Below, in pieces: positions 3,918-32,998 of a stretch of DNA of 64,000 bases. Location of the stretch: IMG/VR virus record IMGVR_UViG_3300027608_000010. One strand, given 5' to 3'. The notes beneath the pieces are model-generated. The model had not been told where the DNA came from, did not search any database, and worked only from the letters and a program-made list of their open reading frames with translations. Both the position numbers and the translations under genes were made by a program. Position 1 is the first letter of the stretch. Every line of letters starts with the position of its first letter. This stretch comes from a virus (Duplodnaviria; Caudoviricetes).

Positions 3918-4324
3918 TGTACATTGGTACTAGTCTTGGTGGATGCATACTTAGTCTTATGAACAAGGAGGTGTCCGAAGATGAGGTTATGGTCATTATA
4001 ACTCGTACCGATTGCCCTAATTATGAATCATACATGGCTGTTGTAGAAGCATATTATGCACAAGGTAATCCCGGCGCTAGAAATCCTGAACGATATGAAT
4101 ATGGTCATTTCTTACTAGAATCTGTACTTGACCTTGCTCAACGATTGTGGCAGAATGGTAAAATCCATCAGCCAAGAACTATTACGAGTAATAGTAGATA
4201 TGTACACCCATTCAGAAATGGTGATAGACTTTGGTTTCAAGTAGTGCCCACTATTGATAATGATACACCGGCAGTAGTAGATGCTTACGAAAAATATAAG
4301 ATGCTGGATATACTAACACGATGA
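3914..4324 (+). CDS. Hypothetical protein
   Basis: 136 aa, ATGA overlaps. Confidence 0.65.
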   Translation: MMYIGTSLGGCILSLMNKEVSEDEVMVIITRTDCPNYESYMAVVEAYYAQGNPGARNPERYEYGHFLLESVLDLAQRLWQNGKIHQPRTITSNSRYVHPFRNGDRLWFQVVPTIDNDTPAVVDAYEKYKMLDILTR

Positions 4325-4578
4325 ATGTTAATCCGTTGTTATGGTATGGTGAACGTGAACTACAACATATCCCTCCTCATTTTACAAAAGCACACACCGC
4401 ATTAACAGATGAGTCATTGTTTTGGGTAATGACTAAGTGTCAAGGTCGTTATTCTACTGTAAGTGCAGAGGAAGATGATAATGATATCATGTCTATATTC
4501 ATACTTACCCGAAATATATATTTTGAAGACCCTGCCGAAGCAATGATGTACGAATTACGCTGGTCTGGCAGTAAATAA
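4321..4578 (+). CDS. Small 'FxLRW' family paralogue (dispersed copy)
   Basis: Ends IYFEDPAEAMMYELRWSGSK, matching the C-terminal motif of the 28.9-31.8 kb array. Confidence 0.7.
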   Translation: MNVNPLLWYGERELQHIPPHFTKAHTALTDESLFWVMTKCQGRYSTVSAEEDDNDIMSIFILTRNIYFEDPAEAMMYELRWSGSK

Positions 4579-6057: not shown

Positions 6058-6947
6058 AACAATACTTAGAATTACTGCAAGACATTTTAGATAACGGAGA
6101 AACAAAAGATGATAGAACTGGCGTTGGCACTATTAGTGTGTTTGGACGTAATCTTCGCTTTGATTTGCGTAGGGGTTTTCCGTCTGTCACTACCAAACGA
6201 CTCGCATGGAAAGCCTGCGTTGGAGAACTACTCTGGTTCATCGAAGGCTCGCAGGACGAGAGGCGCCTCGCGGAGATTACGCATGGCAGCAAAGAAGGCA
6301 CCGTAACAATTTGGACACCAAACGCACTTGCAAGTTATTGGAAAGACAAAGCAAAATTTGAAGGTGACTTAGGTAGAGTATACGGAGTGCAATGGCGTCA
6401 TTGGAGAAAATATGACTTGATGGACGTGTATGCTGAATCAGGCAATACTGTAGTAGATGCGGTGAGACACGACATAGACCAATTTAAAAATCTACTTGAA
6501 GGTCTACAAAAAGATCCTAACAGTCGCCGGCATATACTAAGTGCATGGAATGTAGCTGAAATGGATCAAATGGCATTACCGCCATGTCACGTAATGAGTC
6601 AATTTTATGTCAACAAAAATAAAGAACTCTCTTGTCATATGTACCAGCGTAGTGTGGATGTGTTTCTTGGCTTACCTTTTAACATTGCTAGCTATGCGTT
6701 ACTCACTCATCTAATTGCACATCATTGTGGATTGAAGGTTGGAGAACTTATTATTAGCACGGGTGATACACATATATACACGGACCACGTTGAGCAAGTA
6801 AAAGAACAATTGACCCGTGAAGAATTTATGTTGCCAACGTTGATGTTAAACTCATTAAAGAATAATATCTTTGACATGACAATGCAAGATATACATTTAG
6901 AGAATTATCAAAGTCATGGCCCTATCAAAGCAACAATGGCTGTCTGA
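6054..6947 (+). CDS. thyA: Thymidylate synthase
   Basis: DDRTGVGT, RRHILSAWN, LPPCH, YQRSVD.FLGLPFNIASY; start moved to ATG 6054 (ATGA overlap). Confidence 0.95.
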   Translation: MKQYLELLQDILDNGETKDDRTGVGTISVFGRNLRFDLRRGFPSVTTKRLAWKACVGELLWFIEGSQDERRLAEITHGSKEGTVTIWTPNALASYWKDKAKFEGDLGRVYGVQWRHWRKYDLMDVYAESGNTVVDAVRHDIDQFKNLLEGLQKDPNSRRHILSAWNVAEMDQMALPPCHVMSQFYVNKNKELSCHMYQRSVDVFLGLPFNIASYALLTHLIAHHCGLKVGELIISTGDTHIYTDHVEQVKEQLTREEFMLPTLMLNSLKNNIFDMTMQDIHLENYQSHGPIKATMAV

Positions 6948-7200
6948 CGTGGATCAAAAAACAATTGAGTACACTGTCCATTCTATTAGAATGGGTGATG
7001 TAGAAGATCCTGACTTATTTGTAGCACAACCTATATATGAGTGGCAACAAACAAAAGCAGGTAAGTACGTGATGAAGAATAGCGAACCTGCACCAATGTG
7101 GGTGAGAAGTGCAGACCCGTATACGTATGGACATCTCTATACGATTAAAGCATACTTTACCCCAAAACAATTAACATATTATAAGTTGAGATTTGAATGA
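6916..7200 (+). CDS. Small protein, divergent 'FxLRW' family member
   Basis: Ends AYFTPKQLTYYKLRFE; start uncertain. Confidence 0.55.
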   Translation: MALSKQQWLSDVDQKTIEYTVHSIRMGDVEDPDLFVAQPIYEWQQTKAGKYVMKNSEPAPMWVRSADPYTYGHLYTIKAYFTPKQLTYYKLRFE

Positions 7201-8613: not shown

Positions 8614-8897
8614 ATTTGCTTAAATTATTTGTATTAACAATTTGTATTATACTTGCATTCTTGGCAACAGGATGCTCAACAGTAGTTCCAGTTACTGTAA
8701 AATTCCCCGAAGCACCGGAACAACTTTTAGTAAAATGTCCTCAATTAGACAAAATAGGAGACGAGTCAAAGTTAAGCGATATAACTAAGACAATCACAAA
8801 AAATTATACCACTTACTATGAATGCGCTGTTAAAAACGATGGTTGGATAGAGTGGTATAAAATTCAAAAAGATATTTTTGATAAAGCTGGTAAGTAA
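8610..8897 (+). CDS. Outer-membrane lipoprotein spanin (Rz1-like)
   Basis: Signal peptide with lipobox LATGC, Pro-rich mature N-terminus, extra Cys. Confidence 0.75.
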   Translation: MNLLKLFVLTICIILAFLATGCSTVVPVTVKFPEAPEQLLVKCPQLDKIGDESKLSDITKTITKNYTTYYECAVKNDGWIEWYKIQKDIFDKAGK

Positions 8898-9713
8898 TTA
8901 ATCAGCGTTATTTTTGCATTTAGCACGTTTGGCGTTGGTCAATGCACCGTAGTCAACTGGCCATTCTGCACCAGGTTGCAATTCATTTATATTTTTAGGG
9001 AAAGCATAAGTTACCCCTGCTTGTTTCATAATCTGTGTAATTGGTAAACGGAACTTAGTCAAATCATTCCCCAAGTTAACATAAGGTTTAGTATGTGGGA
9101 ATACCCATCCAGCAACTTGTCCTGTAGTTTGATTGATTACAATCTTATAGTAAGCATGGGGTACAATAACACCTTTACCTATAGTCAAATCACCAGCGCC
9201 ATACATAGCTCCAACGTATACTGTAAGTGGCTGGTTCAATTGCACAGCCCATCCCCTGACACTTGTTTCTAGTAATTTCCAGATTCCACGGTTTAAACTG
9301 CCGTGCTGGGGATACATGTTTGTCATTAAAAAACTTTCGTACTCTACAATTTCACTCCAGCTTAAGTCACCATCAGGAACTGCATGACCTTTATCGTATC
9401 CTGTACCAGCATAGTCATCGGGAACAGCACCACCAACTATACTTTTATCTGCAACAAATGCATTAGTACGCGGCCAACATCCTATTGCATTCTTTGGTAA
9501 TAGAGTGTATGCTACATAGACTGGAATCTTAACAGGAGCATCATATGCTACAAGATATGCTTCACGGCAGATTGGTTGCACTGTACGTGCAGTTTGTGCA
9601 AATCCATAAGGGCTATGAACTTGACATGCTTGAACGGGAAGGGGAGGACGCTGGTCCCAAGAAAAACTGCTTGCTGATGTTAGTGTTAACAGCAAGGCTA
9701 AAAATATACGCAT
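8898..9713 (-). CDS. Secreted DNA/RNA non-specific endonuclease (NucA/Serratia/EndoG family)
   Basis: Signal peptide MRIFLALLLTLTSASSFS; YDKGH (DRGH-like) and TNMYPQ...LNRGIWKLLE motifs; AGGAG SD. Confidence 0.85.
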   Translation of the reverse strand: MRIFLALLLTLTSASSFSWDQRPPLPVQACQVHSPYGFAQTARTVQPICREAYLVAYDAPVKIPVYVAYTLLPKNAIGCWPRTNAFVADKSIVGGAVPDDYAGTGYDKGHAVPDGDLSWSEIVEYESFLMTNMYPQHGSLNRGIWKLLETSVRGWAVQLNQPLTVYVGAMYGAGDLTIGKGVIVPHAYYKIVINQTTGQVAGWVFPHTKPYVNLGNDLTKFRLPITQIMKQAGVTYAFPKNINELQPGAEWPVDYGALTNAKRAKCKNNAD

Positions 9714-24740: not shown

Positions 24741-25754
24741 ATGAACATGATAGTGAAACCTAACACAAAAGAACAATTAGTAGATTTTATGCTAAAGCAT
24801 ATTAGCCTAGGAACCTACGACAAAAAGTTTTTAGACAATTTGCTACACTTAAATTTTGCAGTTAAGAATCCAATTACAACCAATCAAGCCGAGTTGCTCA
24901 ACAAGATTACATCAAGGTATCATAGACAATTCTTAAAAAAGGATTTGAACAGTGAAGAACTAATTCAGTTACCTTGGACACTACAGCCTATTGAGAGCAG
25001 TGTTCAATTTACGCAAGCATACATATCTATAGCGGATGACAAAGACATTGTTATTCATAGTCCTTACAAAAAAGAATTTGTAAAGACACTAAAGGCCCTA
25101 GAATACATGCAGTGGGATAAAGAAAATAAACTTTGGCATACACCCTGTGCTGAATTTAGGTTAAAGAAGTTAATAGAAATATCACATCATAGTTATTCAA
25201 TTGTCAATTACTGTCCTGTTATTGAAGAAATAATGATCCAACTTAAACTATATGAAGAAGTTAAGTATTGGAATCCAACATTGATTGAACGCAATGGTAA
25301 TTACTATGTTGTTGCATGTAACAAAGTACTGTATGAGAAAATCAAAGACATTGACTTGAATGAAGATCCTACAACTATTGCAAAATTAGTGCGCTTGGGT
25401 ATTAAAATTGATGTGGTTGCAGACAAGGTTGCAACAGAATTCAACACACAACTAGAATACTACGATATTAAATATATTATTGAGTCATTACAACGAATAG
25501 GTGCTGACTATGTGATACTAAATCAAATGTACGGTGTCAACAAATCTTATATGATGGAAGTTGCTAATCATTTGAAGGCAAATAAAATCAAACATATGAT
25601 TAGAACTAAAGGCCCAGAATCTTTCAAAGAAGATTTACGACAATATGAAATGCCAGTGAAGTTAAATTTCGGCATGATTAAAGCAGAAGATGGAATAAAA
25701 TACTTAGGAAAAATAATTGGTTTAACAAATAGTGTACCAATCGAGGTCAAATGA
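24741..25754 (+). CDS. Hypothetical protein
   Basis: 337 aa, ATGA overlap with uvsW. Confidence 0.7.
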   Translation: MNMIVKPNTKEQLVDFMLKHISLGTYDKKFLDNLLHLNFAVKNPITTNQAELLNKITSRYHRQFLKKDLNSEELIQLPWTLQPIESSVQFTQAYISIADDKDIVIHSPYKKEFVKTLKALEYMQWDKENKLWHTPCAEFRLKKLIEISHHSYSIVNYCPVIEEIMIQLKLYEEVKYWNPTLIERNGNYYVVACNKVLYEKIKDIDLNEDPTTIAKLVRLGIKIDVVADKVATEFNTQLEYYDIKYIIESLQRIGADYVILNQMYGVNKSYMMEVANHLKANKIKHMIRTKGPESFKEDLRQYEMPVKLNFGMIKAEDGIKYLGKIIGLTNSVPIEVK

Positions 25755-27208
25755 AACAATGTAAACTGATAATTAAAGACGAGGTCAATGTTAAAATCGA
25801 AGGCTTAGAGTTAGCCGAACGTAAAGCATTGATGAAGAAATTTGAATATGAAAAGCCCGGAGCACGATATCTGCCGAGTGTCCGGCTAGGTCGTTGGAAC
25901 GGTAAAATTAGTTTCTTTAGTCTAGGCGGTAGCAGTTTTGTAAATCTACTACCGGAAATTCTTCCTGTACTTGACATGGCAGGATATGATATTGAGTTGG
26001 AAGATTTACGTGAATACAGTACAACATTCACCTTTAATCAAATCACAGAAAATACATTCAGTCAATATACTTGGCCAAAAGGTCATACTAAAGAAGGTGA
26101 GTCAATAATCTTCCGTGACTATCAAGTAAAGATTGTTAACGATTTTCTAGCAAACCCCCAAGCACTGCAAGAAATTGCAACAGGTGCTGGCAAGACATTG
26201 ATTACAGCCGCATTAAGTTATAGCGTACAGAATTATGGTCGTAGTATTGTTATTGTCCCTAACAAAAGTCTTGTTGTACAGACCGAAGCAGATTACATCA
26301 ATCTTGGATTAGATGTTGGTGTGTATTTTGGTGATAGAAAAGAGTTCGGTAAGACACATACAATCTGTACGTGGCAAAGTCTTAACAATATGCTTAAGAA
26401 AACAAAAGCAGATGAAGCAGAAGTACCTATTGGTGAGTTCTTAGAAGGTGTAGTATGTGTCATGGTTGACGAGGTTCATATGGCCAAGGCTGATGCACTG
26501 AAAGAGTTATTGACTGGGGTAATGAGTAATATTCCGATTCGTTGGGGATTGACTGGTACGATTCCTAAAGCAATATTTGAAGCACAAGCAATTTATGTTA
26601 GTCTTGGTAATGTTATCAATAAGCTAAGTGCAAGTGAATTACAGGACCGCGGTGTGTTAGCACAATGTCATGTGAACATCGTGCAGTTACAAGACAAAGT
26701 AGAGTTTAGCAATTATCAAAGTGAATTAAAGCATTTGCTAGAAGATACTGTACGCCTAGACAAACTGGCTCAACTGGTATTAAATATCAAAGAATCGGGG
26801 AATACACTAGTATTAGTGGACAGGGTAAACGCCGGTAAAGAATTAATTAGCAGATTACCTGATGCTGTGTTTGTTTCGGGTAACACTAATATGATAGAAA
26901 GAAAAGAGGAATACGATGAAATTGCAACCAGCACAAACAAAATCATTGTCGCAACCTACGGTGTGGCAGCGGTTGGTATCAACATACCACGAATATTCAA
27001 CCTTGTTCTTATTGAACCAGGCAAGAGCTTTGTTAGAGTCATCCAAAGTATTGGTAGAGGTATTAGAAAAGCGGATGACAAGGATCACGTTCAAATCTGG
27101 GACCTAACCAGTAGCTGTAAGTTTGCCAAAAGACATTTGACTAAACGTAAAGAGTTTTATCGTGAAGCAAATTACCCTTTTGATATGGAGAAGTTGACAT
27201 ACAAGTAA
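25751..27208 (+). CDS. uvsW: SF2 helicase (T4 UvsW-like)
   Basis: FRDYQ, ATGAGKT, VDEVH, GLTGT, VATYG..AVGINIP, QSIGRGIR. Confidence 0.9.
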   Translation: MKQCKLIIKDEVNVKIEGLELAERKALMKKFEYEKPGARYLPSVRLGRWNGKISFFSLGGSSFVNLLPEILPVLDMAGYDIELEDLREYSTTFTFNQITENTFSQYTWPKGHTKEGESIIFRDYQVKIVNDFLANPQALQEIATGAGKTLITAALSYSVQNYGRSIVIVPNKSLVVQTEADYINLGLDVGVYFGDRKEFGKTHTICTWQSLNNMLKKTKADEAEVPIGEFLEGVVCVMVDEVHMAKADALKELLTGVMSNIPIRWGLTGTIPKAIFEAQAIYVSLGNVINKLSASELQDRGVLAQCHVNIVQLQDKVEFSNYQSELKHLLEDTVRLDKLAQLVLNIKESGNTLVLVDRVNAGKELISRLPDAVFVSGNTNMIERKEEYDEIATSTNKIIVATYGVAAVGINIPRIFNLVLIEPGKSFVRVIQSIGRGIRKADDKDHVQIWDLTSSCKFAKRHLTKRKEFYREANYPFDMEKLTYK

Positions 27209-27733: not shown

Positions 27734-28320
27734 TGGCAACTAAAACTCCAGTTGATGAGAAATTTGAAAAAGTAGACTTTGATTTATTTGATGCATTATC
27801 CGCAATGGATAAGAAAGACTATGCTTACTATGATAGATTGACTGAAGAACAACAAAAGAAGTTTGTACCGTATATGATGACCCATTGGATGAGTGCTATT
27901 AAAGCAAATGCAGGACTAAGTTCGTATTACTTAATGAACACTGACTACACTGCAAACAAGCATCTATTCAATGAGTACGTGCAGAAACATCCCAAGCTAC
28001 AATGGTTGATGCTATGTGCGGCAAGCCCTGGCTTGGGTAAGCAGTTTCATCAATGGATACCTCATCTGTCAGGTAAGATAGCACAATTAAAAGAATCACC
28101 TAAAGAAAAAGATATTCGTGATTACTTTACTAAAATATATCCCAAAGCAAGTGGTGCAAATTTATATGCTATCAGTGAAGAATTTGTGGTGTCACAAAAG
28201 AAAAAAGTTTATCTAGCAAAAGAATTCCCTCATCTTAAGATAGAAGATATTGAAACACTAGCCGCAATCACCACTGACAAAGATATAGCACAGTATGAAA
28301 AAGACCACGGAAACGATTGA
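27733..28320 (+). CDS. Possible clamp-loader small subunit (T4 gp62-like)
   Basis: FVPYMMTHWMS...N..ANKH...KLQW...GKQFHQW pattern resembles gp62 by eye only. Confidence 0.45.
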   Translation: MATKTPVDEKFEKVDFDLFDALSAMDKKDYAYYDRLTEEQQKKFVPYMMTHWMSAIKANAGLSSYYLMNTDYTANKHLFNEYVQKHPKLQWLMLCAASPGLGKQFHQWIPHLSGKIAQLKESPKEKDIRDYFTKIYPKASGANLYAISEEFVVSQKKKVYLAKEFPHLKIEDIETLAAITTDKDIAQYEKDHGND

Positions 28321-28999
28321 GATTAAACATAGTTGTGAATTTTGCAAACGTGAGTTTGTAAAAGAACGCACATTGTTTAGCCATCTATGTGAACAAAAGC
28401 AACGCTGGCAAAATCGTGACCAATTGGGTAATAGATTGGGCTTTCAATCTTGGTTACAATTCTATTCTAAGAATAGCATGAGTAAGACTAAGAACAAAAC
28501 ACATGAAGAATTTATTAAGAACGCTTACTACATTCCCTTTGTGAAGTTTGGTAACTATTGTGCAGATGTAAATGTTATTAATGTGAGTAGATATGTTGAT
28601 TGGTTACTAAAGAACAATATTAAGATTGACAGTTGGATTAGTGATACAACATATACTAGGTTTTTGATAGAATATATACGACATGAAGATCCGTTTGATG
28701 CAATACATCGAGGAGTTGAGACATGTATGCGACTATCAGAAGCAGATAGAATTCAACCACATGATATATTGCGATATGGTAATGCAAACAGAATCTGTTT
28801 AGAAATTACTAAAGGTAAGATTAGTCCCTGGATGCTTTACTGTAGTGATAGCGGTACTAAATTTTTAGATACATTAAGTCCAGAACAAGTAAAAATCATT
28901 ATGGATTACATTAATCCAGAACAATGGGCATTGAAATTTCATCGTGAACCAGACCTTAAACAACAAATTAAAGACACCCTTCGTATCGCAGGCTACTAA
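28295..28999 (+). CDS. Hypothetical protein with N-terminal zinc finger
   Basis: CEFCKREFVKERTLFSHLC. Confidence 0.65.
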   Translation: MKKTTETIEIKHSCEFCKREFVKERTLFSHLCEQKQRWQNRDQLGNRLGFQSWLQFYSKNSMSKTKNKTHEEFIKNAYYIPFVKFGNYCADVNVINVSRYVDWLLKNNIKIDSWISDTTYTRFLIEYIRHEDPFDAIHRGVETCMRLSEADRIQPHDILRYGNANRICLEITKGKISPWMLYCSDSGTKFLDTLSPEQVKIIMDYINPEQWALKFHREPDLKQQIKDTLRIAGY

Positions 29000-29180
29000 A
29001 GTTCGTCTTCCCTGGAAGAAAGGTGATTCTATAGCCCGATGGGACGAAACCTGTATATGGGCTATGGAACAGTTTGGGTTACCCGGAGACAAATATAGTA
29101 CTCATCCCACTGAGAATTATATGGATTTTTATTTCCAAGATGAGAAAGACGCTATACATTTCAGTCTCAGGTGGTTATAA
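28944..29180 (+). CDS. 'FxLRW' family paralogue
   Basis: W.E.C.WAMEQFGLPG...DFYFQDEKDAIHFSLRWL; start uncertain. Confidence 0.7.
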   Translation: MNQTLNNKLKTPFVSQATKVRLPWKKGDSIARWDETCIWAMEQFGLPGDKYSTHPTENYMDFYFQDEKDAIHFSLRWL

Positions 29181-29214
29181 TAGTGTAATATTTGCTTGAC
29201 TAAATATTATACTA

Positions 29215-29859
29215 ATGAAGCCCACAATTGCCCTTTTTGTAGCAGATCCAAAATGCTCAGTACAAAGTTCCAATGGAATAATGAGTTCTTTGGGCAATAA
29301 GTATAACTTCAAATTATTTTCTAAAAATGCCCTAGAAAAAGACTTCTTTAAAGGAGTTGATATGGTTGCTGTTCCTGGAGGATTTGGAGATAGTGACAGT
29401 TATGAGAAACTATTTGAACACAGCGGGAAAAGAGTAATTGACTTTGTTAACAATGGTGGCAGATATCTGGGTATATGCATGGGCGCATATTGGGCAGGTT
29501 CGCACTATTTCTCTTTACTTAAAAGCGTAGATGCTGTACAATATCTCAAGCGCCCGGGAACTGATACACGTAGACCACATGCAAAGAACATGCCTATCAC
29601 TTGGAGAGACGAGCCAATGAAAATGTTCTGGTATGATGGATGTGCATTAGTGGGCGATGACACAAAGTTTGAGACAGTTGCTACTTATAGTAATGGAGAT
29701 GCAATGGCTATATTTCAAAACAGATTAGGATTGATTGGGTGTCACCCAGAGAGTCAACCATTCTGGTATGAAAGCTATAGCTGGATGAAAGCACATTACC
29801 ATGATGGCGTACATCACAAACTTCTATTAAATTTTACGAATGAATTAATGCAACGATGA
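29215..29859 (+). CDS. Stand-alone class I glutamine-amidotransferase-like (BPL_N-type) protein
   Basis: VPGG, YLGICMGAY nucleophile elbow, GCHPE. Confidence 0.75.
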   Translation: MKPTIALFVADPKCSVQSSNGIMSSLGNKYNFKLFSKNALEKDFFKGVDMVAVPGGFGDSDSYEKLFEHSGKRVIDFVNNGGRYLGICMGAYWAGSHYFSLLKSVDAVQYLKRPGTDTRRPHAKNMPITWRDEPMKMFWYDGCALVGDDTKFETVATYSNGDAMAIFQNRLGLIGCHPESQPFWYESYSWMKAHYHDGVHHKLLLNFTNELMQR

Positions 29860-30113
29860 GAGGCTATAATCCGGCAGATGAATCCTTTGAAGAATGGGAT
29901 CGTGACCGAAAAGCTAGAAGATGGAAGTATTGGGCGGCTGTACGAAAATTGAAGGCTCAATTTGATAGAAAAGATTCTAGCTTACTATTCAATCAATGGA
30001 TGTTACAAACATTTGGAATTAGAATCATTTACAATAATGAGGGGCATTTAACTGAAAACTATGAAGTTATTGACGAAAAAAAATATCTATTCTTTGTACT
30101 AAAATACCTATGA
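29856..30113 (+). CDS. 'FxLRW' family paralogue (divergent)
   Basis: Ends YEVIDEKKYLFFVLKYL. Confidence 0.65.
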   Translation: MRGYNPADESFEEWDRDRKARRWKYWAAVRKLKAQFDRKDSSLLFNQWMLQTFGIRIIYNNEGHLTENYEVIDEKKYLFFVLKYL

Positions 30114-30367
30114 CACTAGAAGATGAAATTGTTGAGAGTTTAGCCAGAGAATACTCTGAACAGCTTGACTTTGATATTACAAAAGACTTGTTGACTGATT
30201 CAGGTTGGTACACTATTGAGTTGTCAACGTTGATAAGTAGAGAACAGTCAATTGATATCAAAGATTGGGTATCAGAAAAAGTTAAAGAAGGTTTTGTATC
30301 CAGAGGAAAAACATTTATATTCAAGTCTAAAAAAGAAGCTGAATGGTTCAGTCTGCGATGGCAATGA
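30110..30367 (+). CDS. 'FxLRW' family paralogue
   Basis: DIKDWVSE...FIFKSKKEAEWFSLRWQ. Confidence 0.75.
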   Translation: MTLEDEIVESLAREYSEQLDFDITKDLLTDSGWYTIELSTLISREQSIDIKDWVSEKVKEGFVSRGKTFIFKSKKEAEWFSLRWQ

Positions 30368-30669
30368 TTAAAAAAAGACAAATGACTAATAAGTTATATG
30401 GATCTAACGGCGGTTGGGCGGCAATACGTAGTGTGAACTATGCAGGCATAGGATATGCGTATGACATGCCCTATCATCAGATTGATCCTATAATATCACC
30501 GAATGAATGGAACAAAATGACTGCTTGGTGTGTATCTGTATTCGGACCCAGTGGCACACCCGGCGCACCCGGTGTATGGACGCCCGGTGATAGATGGTAT
30601 GCTAACAATGCTAAGTTTTGGTTTAGAGACAAGCCGGATTGCGAATGGTTTTTATTGAGATGGCAATGA
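30358..30669 (+). CDS. 'FxLRW' family paralogue
   Basis: Start moved to ATG 30358 (MAMIKK); AWCVSVFGP...FWFRDKPDCEWFLLRWQ. Confidence 0.75.
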   Translation: MAMIKKRQMTNKLYGSNGGWAAIRSVNYAGIGYAYDMPYHQIDPIISPNEWNKMTAWCVSVFGPSGTPGAPGVWTPGDRWYANNAKFWFRDKPDCEWFLLRWQ

Positions 30670-30884
30670 TTAATTTAGAAGAATGGAAAATGACTGATAC
30701 GGGTTATGTTCGTACTGTTGAGAGTACGGACATTCTATTGCCATCAGCATTAAGAGCAGACATATACGATTGGTGCTGGGAAAAGAGTATACTTGTAGCA
30801 TTAGAAGGCACAATGGCGGGCATGGATGTTTGGAGTGTCAAAGATGAGAAACAACGTATGTGGTTTCAATTGAGATGGCAATAA
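30660..30884 (+). CDS. 'FxLRW' family paralogue
   Basis: Start moved to ATG 30660 (MAMINL); DIYDWC...VKDEKQRMWFQLRWQ. Confidence 0.75.
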   Translation: MAMINLEEWKMTDTGYVRTVESTDILLPSALRADIYDWCWEKSILVALEGTMAGMDVWSVKDEKQRMWFQLRWQ

Positions 30885-31123
30885 CTATTAAACTTAAAAA
30901 TAGATTAACGGCAAGAGAAGAACAATGGCTAGCAAAGAATATTGGGCCTAGATTGCATTACATTCATAACAGTATCGGTGGACAGGGCTGGATAGCAAAA
31001 CATACATGGGATCCGGGAGTAGTTAATAAACATTGGACTCAGAATTCAAAAAGTAAACATTGGACCCTTACATTTGAAAATGAAAGCTATGCTAGTTTCT
31101 TTTTAATAAAATTTCCACAATGA
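30875..31123 (+). CDS. 'FxLRW' family paralogue
   Basis: Start moved to ATG 30875 (MAITIK); QWLAKNIGP...LTFENESYASFFLIKFPQ. Confidence 0.7.
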   Translation: MAITIKLKNRLTAREEQWLAKNIGPRLHYIHNSIGGQGWIAKHTWDPGVVNKHWTQNSKSKHWTLTFENESYASFFLIKFPQ

Positions 31124-31338
31124 TAACTGTAACTTTAATAGACAAACAACCCAACGAGGTTATGGAAATAGTGCGTGAGTTGCGTAGTAAAGGATATCTC
31201 CAAGGTATTGAATTTGACTTTGAATATCATAAACCCGTTTTTAATGACTGGAGTGGAGATAACGTGTACAATAGATACACTGTATTCAAATTCTATAAAG
31301 AATCACTTGCAACCTGGTTTACACTAAAATATCAATAA
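31120..31338 (+). CDS. 'FxLRW' family paralogue
   Basis: Ends FKFYKESLATWFTLKYQ. Confidence 0.7.
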   Translation: MITVTLIDKQPNEVMEIVRELRSKGYLQGIEFDFEYHKPVFNDWSGDNVYNRYTVFKFYKESLATWFTLKYQ

Positions 31339-31601
31339 TGGCTATACAACATATTAACGGGATATTAAGAAAAGTTTCAGTAGGCCAAGAATTTAAAAGT
31401 GTAGAAGTTACTGGAAACAAAACATATTATAGAATTTATTATGGAAAAAGAAAAGATTATCCGAATGACCATATCAAATGGTGTCGCAGAAATTTAGGTG
31501 AGCGTGGAGTAGGATGGGACTTTACTTTTATATCTAACATGTTGACTATAGAGATATGGGATGATAAATTGAAATTCATGTATGAAATTTGGAAACAATA
31601 A
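31338..31601 (+). CDS. 'FxLRW' family paralogue (divergent)
   Basis: IKWCRRNLG...IEIWDDKLKFMYEIWKQ. Confidence 0.65.
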   Translation: MAIQHINGILRKVSVGQEFKSVEVTGNKTYYRIYYGKRKDYPNDHIKWCRRNLGERGVGWDFTFISNMLTIEIWDDKLKFMYEIWKQ

Positions 31602-31846
31602 TGGAACTGACTCAAAAGAAATATCTATATCCTGGATCAAAAACAACATTTTATACTGTTAATTGGGTCCGTAGCATTGAACACACTAACAAAGATATAC
31701 AGAAATGGTGTAGGAAAACATTCGGCAAACCCGGATACAATGACAAGTTAGAAATGGTTCGTTGGACTGATAATATCAGTGAATCAAATAGCATAACTTT
31801 TTTACAAGAATCAGACTTTATGATGTTTCTATTAAGGTGGCAGTAA
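31601..31846 (+). CDS. 'FxLRW' family paralogue
   Basis: Start moved to the TAATG overlap at 31601; DIQKWCRKTFGKPG...ITFLQESDFMMFLLRWQ. Confidence 0.75.
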   Translation: MELTQKKYLYPGSKTTFYTVNWVRSIEHTNKDIQKWCRKTFGKPGYNDKLEMVRWTDNISESNSITFLQESDFMMFLLRWQ

Positions 31847-31847
31847 T

Positions 31848-32408
31848 ATGGCAATGGATATAATGATAGATATTGAAAGTTTGAACACAACACCTGATTG
31901 TGTTATACTTACAATTGGTGCTGTACGTTTTGATCCTAAAGGTAGTGGGATAGTAGAGAAGTTAGAACTAAGACCTACTATTGAGGATCAAACTGAAATC
32001 TACAATCGTAGCATTAACGAGGATACGTTACGTTGGTGGAGTACTCAAAGCGAGGCTGCACAAGAAGAAGCTATGGGAGATTCTGGACGTGAATCATTGT
32101 CTGACTGCATGGAGAAACTATATAAGTTTTGTTGGAACCGTCGTGCTGTATGGTCGCACGGTGCACCCTTTGACGTTGTTGTCATGGAGTCAGCACTAAG
32201 ACAAACTTCAACTAGACCTAATCCAATACCCTGGGCTTTCTATACAGTAAGAGATACACGAACATTATTTGACATTACTGGAGTAAGTCTTAAAGACGGT
32301 GGACACGTGACTACCCACAAAGCGGTAGAAGATGCTGAACGTCAGGCTATTGTCGTACAGAAAGCGTATATGAAATTAATTAAAGCAGGATTAGTGCCAC
32401 CTAAATGA
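31848..32408 (+). CDS. DEDDh 3'-5' exonuclease
   Basis: IMIDIES (ExoI), WSHGAPFD (ExoII), HKAVEDA (ExoIII). Confidence 0.85.
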   Translation: MAMDIMIDIESLNTTPDCVILTIGAVRFDPKGSGIVEKLELRPTIEDQTEIYNRSINEDTLRWWSTQSEAAQEEAMGDSGRESLSDCMEKLYKFCWNRRAVWSHGAPFDVVVMESALRQTSTRPNPIPWAFYTVRDTRTLFDITGVSLKDGGHVTTHKAVEDAERQAIVVQKAYMKLIKAGLVPPK

Positions 32409-32998
32409 AGTTTCAATCAGATATTGATATTGACTTTGGTAACAGAGATAGTATATTAAAACATATCTCACATATACCTGCGGCAATGCGTAGAGCTAAT
32501 CCTATTCGTAAACATGCAACTGGTATCTATGTGACAGAGATTCCATATGATGCACTACTTGACATGGCTAACATGGACTATAGTGAAGCAGAAAGTCGCG
32601 GGTATCTTAAGTTAGACTTTTTGAACGTGCATGTATATGATAAGGTTCGTGATGAACAGCATTTGATTGAATTGATGCGTGAACCTAATTGGGACAAATT
32701 AAATGATAAAGTATTTGTGGGACAACTGATTCACTTGAGTAACCATTATCATAGTATGCAAAAGATGCAAGATCCTATTAATAGCATACCTAGACTTGCT
32801 ATGATGTTAGCAATAATTAGACCTGCTAAAAAGCATTTAATTGGATTACCTTGGAAAGAAGTTGCAGAAACAGTGTGGGAGAAGAATATAGATGGATACA
32901 GTTTTAAGAAAAGTCATGCAATTTCCTACTCATGGCTTGTTGCAGTGCATATGAATCTATTAGAAGAATTAGGACATCCTCTTGACGAGGGTAATTGA
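32405..32998 (+). CDS. Miniature family-C (DnaE/Pol III alpha-like) polymerase core, 197 aa
   Basis: SDIDIDF, RKHATGIYV, GYLKLDFLNV, LAIIRP and GYSFKKSHAISY occur in DnaE order. Confidence 0.8.
   Translation: MKFQSDIDIDFGNRDSILKHISHIPAAMRRANPIRKHATGIYVTEIPYDALLDMANMDYSEAESRGYLKLDFLNVHVYDKVRDEQHLIELMREPNWDKLNDKVFVGQLIHLSNHYHSMQKMQDPINSIPRLAMMLAIIRPAKKHLIGLPWKEVAETVWEKNIDGYSFKKSHAISYSWLVAVHMNLLEELGHPLDEGN

Follow-up and report, generated by a model that had tools for sequence, protein, structure and literature searches.

Between positions 28944 and 31846 of a 64,000-nucleotide stretch of viral DNA (Caudoviricetes; IMG/VR record IMGVR_UViG_3300027608_000010; the whole stretch is referred to here as the window), nine small genes form a tandem array. 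These nine open reading frames (ORFs), together with a tenth at 4321-4578, are paralogues of one family. A preliminary description made from the letters of the window had listed eleven such paralogues, and all eleven ORFs are present where it placed them, on the plus strand. The features of the locus are collected in Table 1.

The source of the window is a T4-related giant phage, uncultured and of freshwater origin. The UvsW-type helicase that it encodes at 25751-27208 shares 56% identity with the homologue in Sinorhizobium phage Phosso and about 51% with the versions found in E. coli jumbo phages (roughly 350 kb). Near the array lie genes for a primase, for a DnaB-like helicase and for an Rv2179c-like exonuclease, as well as a minimal DnaE-like fragment. 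With this T4-type replication set and the split minimal DnaE-like polymerase, the carrier falls within the T4-related group 2.2 of jumbo phages as defined by Iyer et al. 2021 (PMC7824862). The array stretch recurs with hardly any change in numerous metagenomes from fresh water and lakes, and also in contigs L007-L011, of which L007-L009 are 99-100% identical to the window.

Table 1. Genes of the array, its flanks and the dispersed ORFs. Member E-values refer to a hidden Markov model (HMM) profile of 150 outside representatives unless called iterated (profile from 89 related loci); hhalign percentages are against the broad family; dN/dS is the ratio of nonsynonymous to synonymous substitution rates, estimated by comparison with relatives whose synonymous distances are roughly 0.15-2.
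Feature	Position	Strand	Evidence	dN/dS
Dispersed member, 85 aa	4321..4578	+	HMM E 8e-8 outside, 1e-6 iterated; outside orthologue P0060	
Non-member, separate conserved 94-aa phage protein	6916..7200	+	HMM E 7; hhalign 1.25%	
Upstream flank, 234-aa protein, phrog_11058 (function-unknown PHROG)	28295..28999	+	PHROG match 7.5e-57	
Member 1, 78 aa, GTG start, subtype 0	28944..29180	+	HMM E 8e-30	0.04-0.12
Non-member inside the array, BPL_N / class-I glutamine-amidotransferase-like, 214 aa	29215..29859	+	Pfam PF09825 7e-11, PF00117 7.5e-5	
Member 2, 85 aa, divergent, weakest member	29856..30113	+	HMM E 6e-3 outside profile, 5e-10 iterated; hhalign 64%	0.07
Member 3, 85 aa, acidic	30110..30367	+	HMM E 1.6e-8; phmmer 1e-5 to 30660	0.39-0.59 (0.39-0.48 in five relatives, 0.59 in L028)
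Member 4, 101 aa from ATGA start (103 aa from ATG 30358)	30364..30669	+	HMM E 4e-21	0.06-0.21
Member 5, 74 aa, rare subtype	30660..30884	+	HMM E 3e-13; orthologues in only 2 other loci	0.39-0.45
Member 6, 82 aa, basic, divergent	30875..31123	+	HMM E 1.5e-3, 4e-8 iterated; hhalign 88%	0.14-0.60
Member 7, 72 aa, subtype without the usual Trp helix	31120..31338	+	HMM E 2e-7; hhalign 96%	0.04-0.31
Member 8, 87 aa	31338..31601	+	HMM E 5e-12; hhalign 96%	0.14-0.48
Member 9, 81 aa, array end, directly 5' of the exonuclease gene	31601..31846	+	HMM E 7e-16	0.04-0.11 (close relatives)
Downstream flank, Rv2179c-like 3'-5' exonuclease	31848..32408	+	Pfam PF16473 4.5e-32	
Minimal DnaE-like fragment, next after the exonuclease	32405-32998	+	phrog_11778 DNA polymerase 5e-52	

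The genes from 29856 to 32998 form a single chain whose joints are ATGA, TAATG or short overlaps. Within the array the junctions vary, comprising ATGA, TAATG, a 10-nucleotide (nt) overlap and a 34-nt gap; the gap parts member 1 from the amidotransferase-like gene that interrupts the array. At its other end, member 1 overlaps the 234-aa gene by 56 nt. The product of this upstream gene carries an N-terminal CxxC...HxxxC pattern, and the gene stands immediately 5' of the subtype-0 member in the window as well as in L003, L004 and L007. In L003 the slot of the amidotransferase-like gene is taken by a gene for a PhyH-type dioxygenase, and because the content of the slot differs in this way, the junction after member 1 has the appearance of a hot spot for insertions. 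Parts of the array are spanned by contigs from four metatranscriptome libraries, which is weak evidence of transcription given that DNA carry-over is possible. A scan for promoters and terminators found nothing exceeding the shuffled expectation. One RNA-library contig (run X17) links position 29855 to 30110 through three other bases and so represents a natural variant that lacks exactly the gene 29856-30113.

Membership of the family

Within the window the members resemble one another faintly but consistently. In pairwise phmmer comparisons, fellow members top the match lists of most ORFs with weak scores (best 1e-5), and a seed of three sequences gathers five to eight members through iteration. 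We then turned to proteins outside the window: a profile of eight window members, searched against 1.84 billion representative proteins, retrieved 336 clusters (50% identity) at E<=1e-3. Among the best 150 outside matches listed, nearly all are proteins of 56-133 aa, most of the matches end at or near the C-terminus, and the sequences share one chain of motifs: a Trp helix, an FG(L)PG turn, an FxF strand and a DExDA..F.LRW helix. A profile built from 150 outside representatives in turn set eight window ORFs (28944, 30343/64, 31589/601, 30639/60, 31338, 30110, 4321 and 31120; E 8e-30 to 2e-7) clear of 339 other six-frame ORFs. It was marginal for 30860/75 (1.5e-3) and 29856 (6e-3), the next non-member having an E-value of 1.2.

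The iterated search covered 90 loci with 7456 six-frame ORFs in all. The first profile pass gave 411 matches, all of which share the seed gene's strand and 410 of which extend to the end of the ORF; after three further rounds there were 534, with 533 on the seed strand and 524 reaching the ORF end. Since these two properties persist in nearly all of the 534 matches, profile drift is argued against. With the iterated profile, drawn from 89 related loci, the nine array ORFs and 4321 score between 6e-27 and 1e-6, and the best non-member reaches 0.19. Comparison by hhalign against the broad family gave 64-96% for 29856, 30875, 31120 and 31338, and 1% for 6916 (Table 1).

A match to the outside profile that runs to the C-terminus was thus found for the nine array ORFs and for 4321, and was missing for 6916-7200, the second dispersed ORF of the preliminary description. 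The latter is also absent from the iterated-profile list down to E 2.3, and only its last residues resemble the motif; both the HMM and hhalign rule it out as a family member. As 6916 fails the profile and hhalign tests, the member count is ten rather than eleven, with one dispersed copy rather than two; the rest of the proposed set held. The product of 6916-7200 belongs to a family of its own, with 305 homologues at 55-94% identity, and has no match in Pfam or PHROGs.

One could ask whether the shared C-terminus is a mere artefact of a DNA-level junction signal, the overlap of stop and start codons, on ORFs that are otherwise unrelated. A 27-nt repeat, covering the C-terminal residues and stop of one member together with the start of its successor, does occur at 30344-30370, 30646-30672 and 30861-30887; however, these three junctions belong to the three closest paralogues. 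The similarity covers about 55 residues and thus reaches well beyond the end of the genes, the types of junction differ within the array (with the 34-nt gap following member 1), and the motif is retained in hundreds of outside proteins and in 4321-4578, which has three additional residues beyond it and stops three codons further on. We regard this explanation as very improbable, and a junction origin of the C-terminal motif is refuted by the profile and structure results.

Fold and relation to known families

The AlphaFold model of member 1, made with 86 aligned sequences, consists of a strand (18-23), a helix (30-44), two strands (51-55 and 59-64) and a second helix (67-77), with a mean predicted local distance difference test (pLDDT) score of 82 and about 90 in the core. 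In the model of the divergent 29856 (pLDDT 80), a long N-terminal helix (6-36) replaces strand 1 and is followed by an alpha-beta-beta-alpha core. The two models, which cover members 28944 and 29856, were compared by the order of their elements and not by superposition, and on this basis both proteins are predicted to share the alpha-beta-beta-alpha core. The single small alpha/beta scaffold that the preliminary description had proposed is supported by the beta-alpha-beta-beta-alpha model of 28944 and by the same core in 29856, and the variability that it saw in N-termini and loops is likewise upheld.

The domain spans about 60 residues and comprises a strand, the Trp helix, a Gly turn, a beta hairpin and a C-terminal amphipathic helix with a terminal aromatic residue; sequence conservation extends over some 55 residues. 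Member 4 has a Gly/Pro-rich insert past helix 1, and member 6 ends in a variant of the usual C-terminal motif. Aromatic or aliphatic residues occupy the positions that hardly vary, apart from one Gly and one helix-capping Asp. Judged from the alignment and the secondary structure, the invariant residues (Trp of helix 1, the FG turn, FxF of strand 3 and DA..F.LRW of helix 2) would form the hydrophobic core. No conserved Cys, His, Ser or Lys pattern pointing to catalysis or metal binding is present in the family alignment.

Structure searches led to other unnamed viral proteins. BFVD yielded uncharacterised proteins from uncultured phages, at E-values as low as 1e-6, together with weak fold matches in Agrobacterium phage Atu_ph07, and the structural neighbours in the ESM Atlas are unnamed clusters that are 89-100% viral; the feature search of the same resource likewise returned unnamed viral clusters only. 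The resemblance to ferredoxin-like folds is generic, with scores at the background level of the search. Compared with the ferredoxin-like beta-alpha-beta-beta-alpha-beta domains (ACT, RRM, DCoH, MzrA and designed mini-proteins), the family lacks the last strand, and it has no sequence-profile match to them and neither RNP nor ligand-site motifs.

The preliminary description recognised no named domain in these proteins, and we found no consistent match either. Across Pfam-A, PHROGs, NCBIfam and PADLOC, no family was matched by more than one of 40 or 86 members, the stray library matches all lay under the curated cut-offs where one exists, and the family HMM did not hit a well-characterised family. 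A search of PDB sequences gave one chance match (E 0.18). A megablast comparison of the array with the phage collection returned no match, tblastn with 30364 and 28944 returned chance-level matches only, and no homology to T4 proteins was detected. Fused forms were not seen among proteins of 218-2000 aa, which is weak evidence. Database names for members are exclusively 'hypothetical protein', and we found no description of the family in the literature.

Subtypes, turnover and selection

The family is almost entirely viral. In related freshwater jumbo-phage contigs the array comes after UvsW and a further three conserved genes, all of unknown function, and precedes the exonuclease, primase and helicase genes. 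When members were counted in relatives with the HMM, the family was recovered with 3-13 members in each locus of at least 14 kb. Unrelated phages provide other settings as well. In L090, a phage whose genes include heme oxygenase, bilin reductase and HSP70, a block of small genes contains 7-8 tandem members, and further phage types (L092 and L093) have at least 10. In the genome of the cultured Sinorhizobium phage Phosso (PV764938.1, 469 kb) there are 31 profile matches at E<=0.01, all annotated as hypothetical and scattered through blocks of small genes and tRNA genes (for example, positions 2900-14000 of L094). The proposed location inside the replication region therefore holds for the window and the related contigs but is not general, as L090, L092/L093 and Phosso place the genes elsewhere. 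In L093, a freshwater phage contig, the small-gene block with the array of at least 10 members also contains a gene of the anti-Gabija Gad2 family (8734-9387), which we mention as context only.

For every member in the window, between 2 and 80 other loci contain orthologues that score 45-215 bits, whereas the best of its own paralogues reaches at most 30 bits, and the paralogues of one genome are mostly invisible to one another in BLASTP. Clustering sorts the members into about 43 subtypes, of which some dozen are common, in agreement with the diversified repertoire that had been suspected. Subtype 0, that of member 1, is the most conserved and most widespread; its orthologue is present in 80 of 80 IMG/VR loci, which were fetched by the presence of a member 1 orthologue. 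Orthologues of 29856 sit within the arrays of 38 loci and in L090, those of 31120 occur in L005, L090 and L092, and 30875 has an orthologue in the L005 array. The order of subtypes is partly conserved, and single subtypes come and go even among close relatives: L012 is without the 30660 type, and L013 and L014 are without the 29856 type. Because orthologues are far closer to one another than sister genes are and presence or absence varies gene by gene, the array represents long-separated, distinct paralogues that turn over like cassettes and not a recent burst of duplication.

Estimates of dN/dS, a check that the preliminary description had called for, range from 0.04 to 0.6 and indicate purifying selection (Table 1). 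As the ratio is below 1 in every member, these are real protein-coding genes. The flanking replication genes have values of 0.02-0.15; some members evolve several-fold faster than their neighbours, and gene-wide positive selection was seen in none. Taken together, the structural and evolutionary results almost certainly describe ancient paralogues of one phage-specific mini-domain, kept under purifying selection in coupled arrays of old subtypes.

Possible functions and known parallels

By analogy, the members may constitute a repertoire of small non-enzymatic binder proteins, probably directed at the host and differing in their targets; we favour this reading, tentatively. It fits best with the combination of a phage-only distribution, the absence of a catalytic signature, variable loops, diverse charge, turnover and a place in accessory gene blocks. 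The domain would serve as a passive scaffold, and it has this look because the conserved residues build the core and no residue of a catalytic type is conserved. Specificity would then reside in the variable N-terminal segment, the hairpin loop and the exposed face of the sheet. The binders would be produced together with replication or accessory gene blocks, and each might have its own target among the macromolecules of host or phage and serve, for instance, to block a host defence or to take over a host factor. A more far-reaching form of the proposal, a natural mini-binder library in which a 60-residue scaffold comes in subtypes shuffled gene by gene to neutralise host defences or takeover targets, strikes us as rather doubtful.

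Several observations weigh against a host-directed repertoire. Function can be suggested by analogy only, and no member matches the anti-defence families as modelled in Pfam. The dN/dS ratio never exceeds 1, and the constraint on 28944, 29856, 30364 and 31601 equals that on core replication genes, which is untypical of an arms-race repertoire and would suit a housekeeping role in the phage too. In many related phages subtype 0 keeps a fixed place directly behind the conserved 234-aa gene, a hint of a partner inside the phage.

Other functions have to be considered beside this one. If the ferredoxin-like or RRM-like face of the sheet bound RNA or single-stranded DNA, the paralogues could regulate the translation or replication of different sets of genes, a reading supported by the fold class and the replication context in the window; however, acidic members exist, no basic residues are conserved, and arrays elsewhere lie in other contexts. 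The isoelectric points of the members range from 4.6 to 10.0, and such widely different charge is better fitted by different partners than by one shared nucleic-acid ligand. We hold nucleic-acid-binding regulators to be unlikely. A role in a phage complex, as subunits or as factors for its assembly, either as hetero-oligomers or by docking on a replication or recombination protein such as the 234-aa protein, draws on translational coupling through the ATGA or TAATG junctions, the partly conserved order of subtypes, the position of subtype 0 next to the 234-aa gene and the strong purifying selection on several subtypes. Against such a role, related phages carry anything from 3 to 13 copies, and the loss of single subtypes between close relatives is hard to square with a fixed complex. 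The charges of neighbouring members are not complementary either: charge alternates along the window array, but pairing of acidic with basic neighbours, which we considered on that ground, was rejected when 289 adjacent pairs from 75 non-redundant arrays showed no difference from shuffled ones (p = 0.55). Membership of a phage complex is in our view quite unlikely. It is more improbable still that the proteins are binders of small ligands, in the manner of ACT domains or of sponges that capture a metabolite or a signalling nucleotide of host immunity, since the conserved positions make up a hydrophobic core and include no polar pocket residues, dozens of divergent subtypes would be unexpected for a few conserved ligands, and there is no Pfam match to ACT or sponge families.

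If the members are indeed host-directed binders, they would represent a broad, previously unrecognised class of counter-defence or host-control proteins that is common in giant phages of freshwater and soil, where a noticeable part of the unexplained small genes belongs to this family. Old subtypes that are individually conserved and singly swapped could offer handles on the components that phages need to control, and if the members are inhibitors, each subtype could mark a separate target. Cultured carriers open a route to the bench, namely Phosso with its 31 matches and, on the weak BFVD fold matches alone, Atu_ph07.

The array invites comparison with three known systems. T4-like phages have blocks of small, non-essential early genes between their replication genes, and several of the products inhibit host proteins. 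The array resembles these blocks in consisting of small, tightly packed, co-directional genes amid replication genes, with a content that differs among relatives; however, the T4 blocks are made up mostly of unrelated singletons, whereas in the window nine out of ten genes in a row are built on one scaffold. Bacterial polymorphic-toxin loci contain tandem arrays of divergent small immunity proteins next to toxin genes, and there too diverged paralogues share one small scaffold, with specificity thought to lie in the variable surfaces. The present array differs in that no toxin gene is near it, its carriers are viral and the sequences are unrelated.

The third parallel is the lineage-specific expansion of zinc ribbons in the jumbo phage Bacillus phage G, with about 35 copies (Iyer et al. 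2021, PMC7824862), a survey from which the present family is absent. In both cases many copies of one small stand-alone domain occur in a giant genome, and in both a function has been proposed through inference only. The family is undescribed, widespread and arranged in arrays, and it is an instance of the known habit of giant phages of expanding small accessory domains. It differs from the zinc ribbons of phage G in having another fold and no metal ligands, and in that it spans several phage lineages as old subtypes rather than marking a recent burst in one genome.

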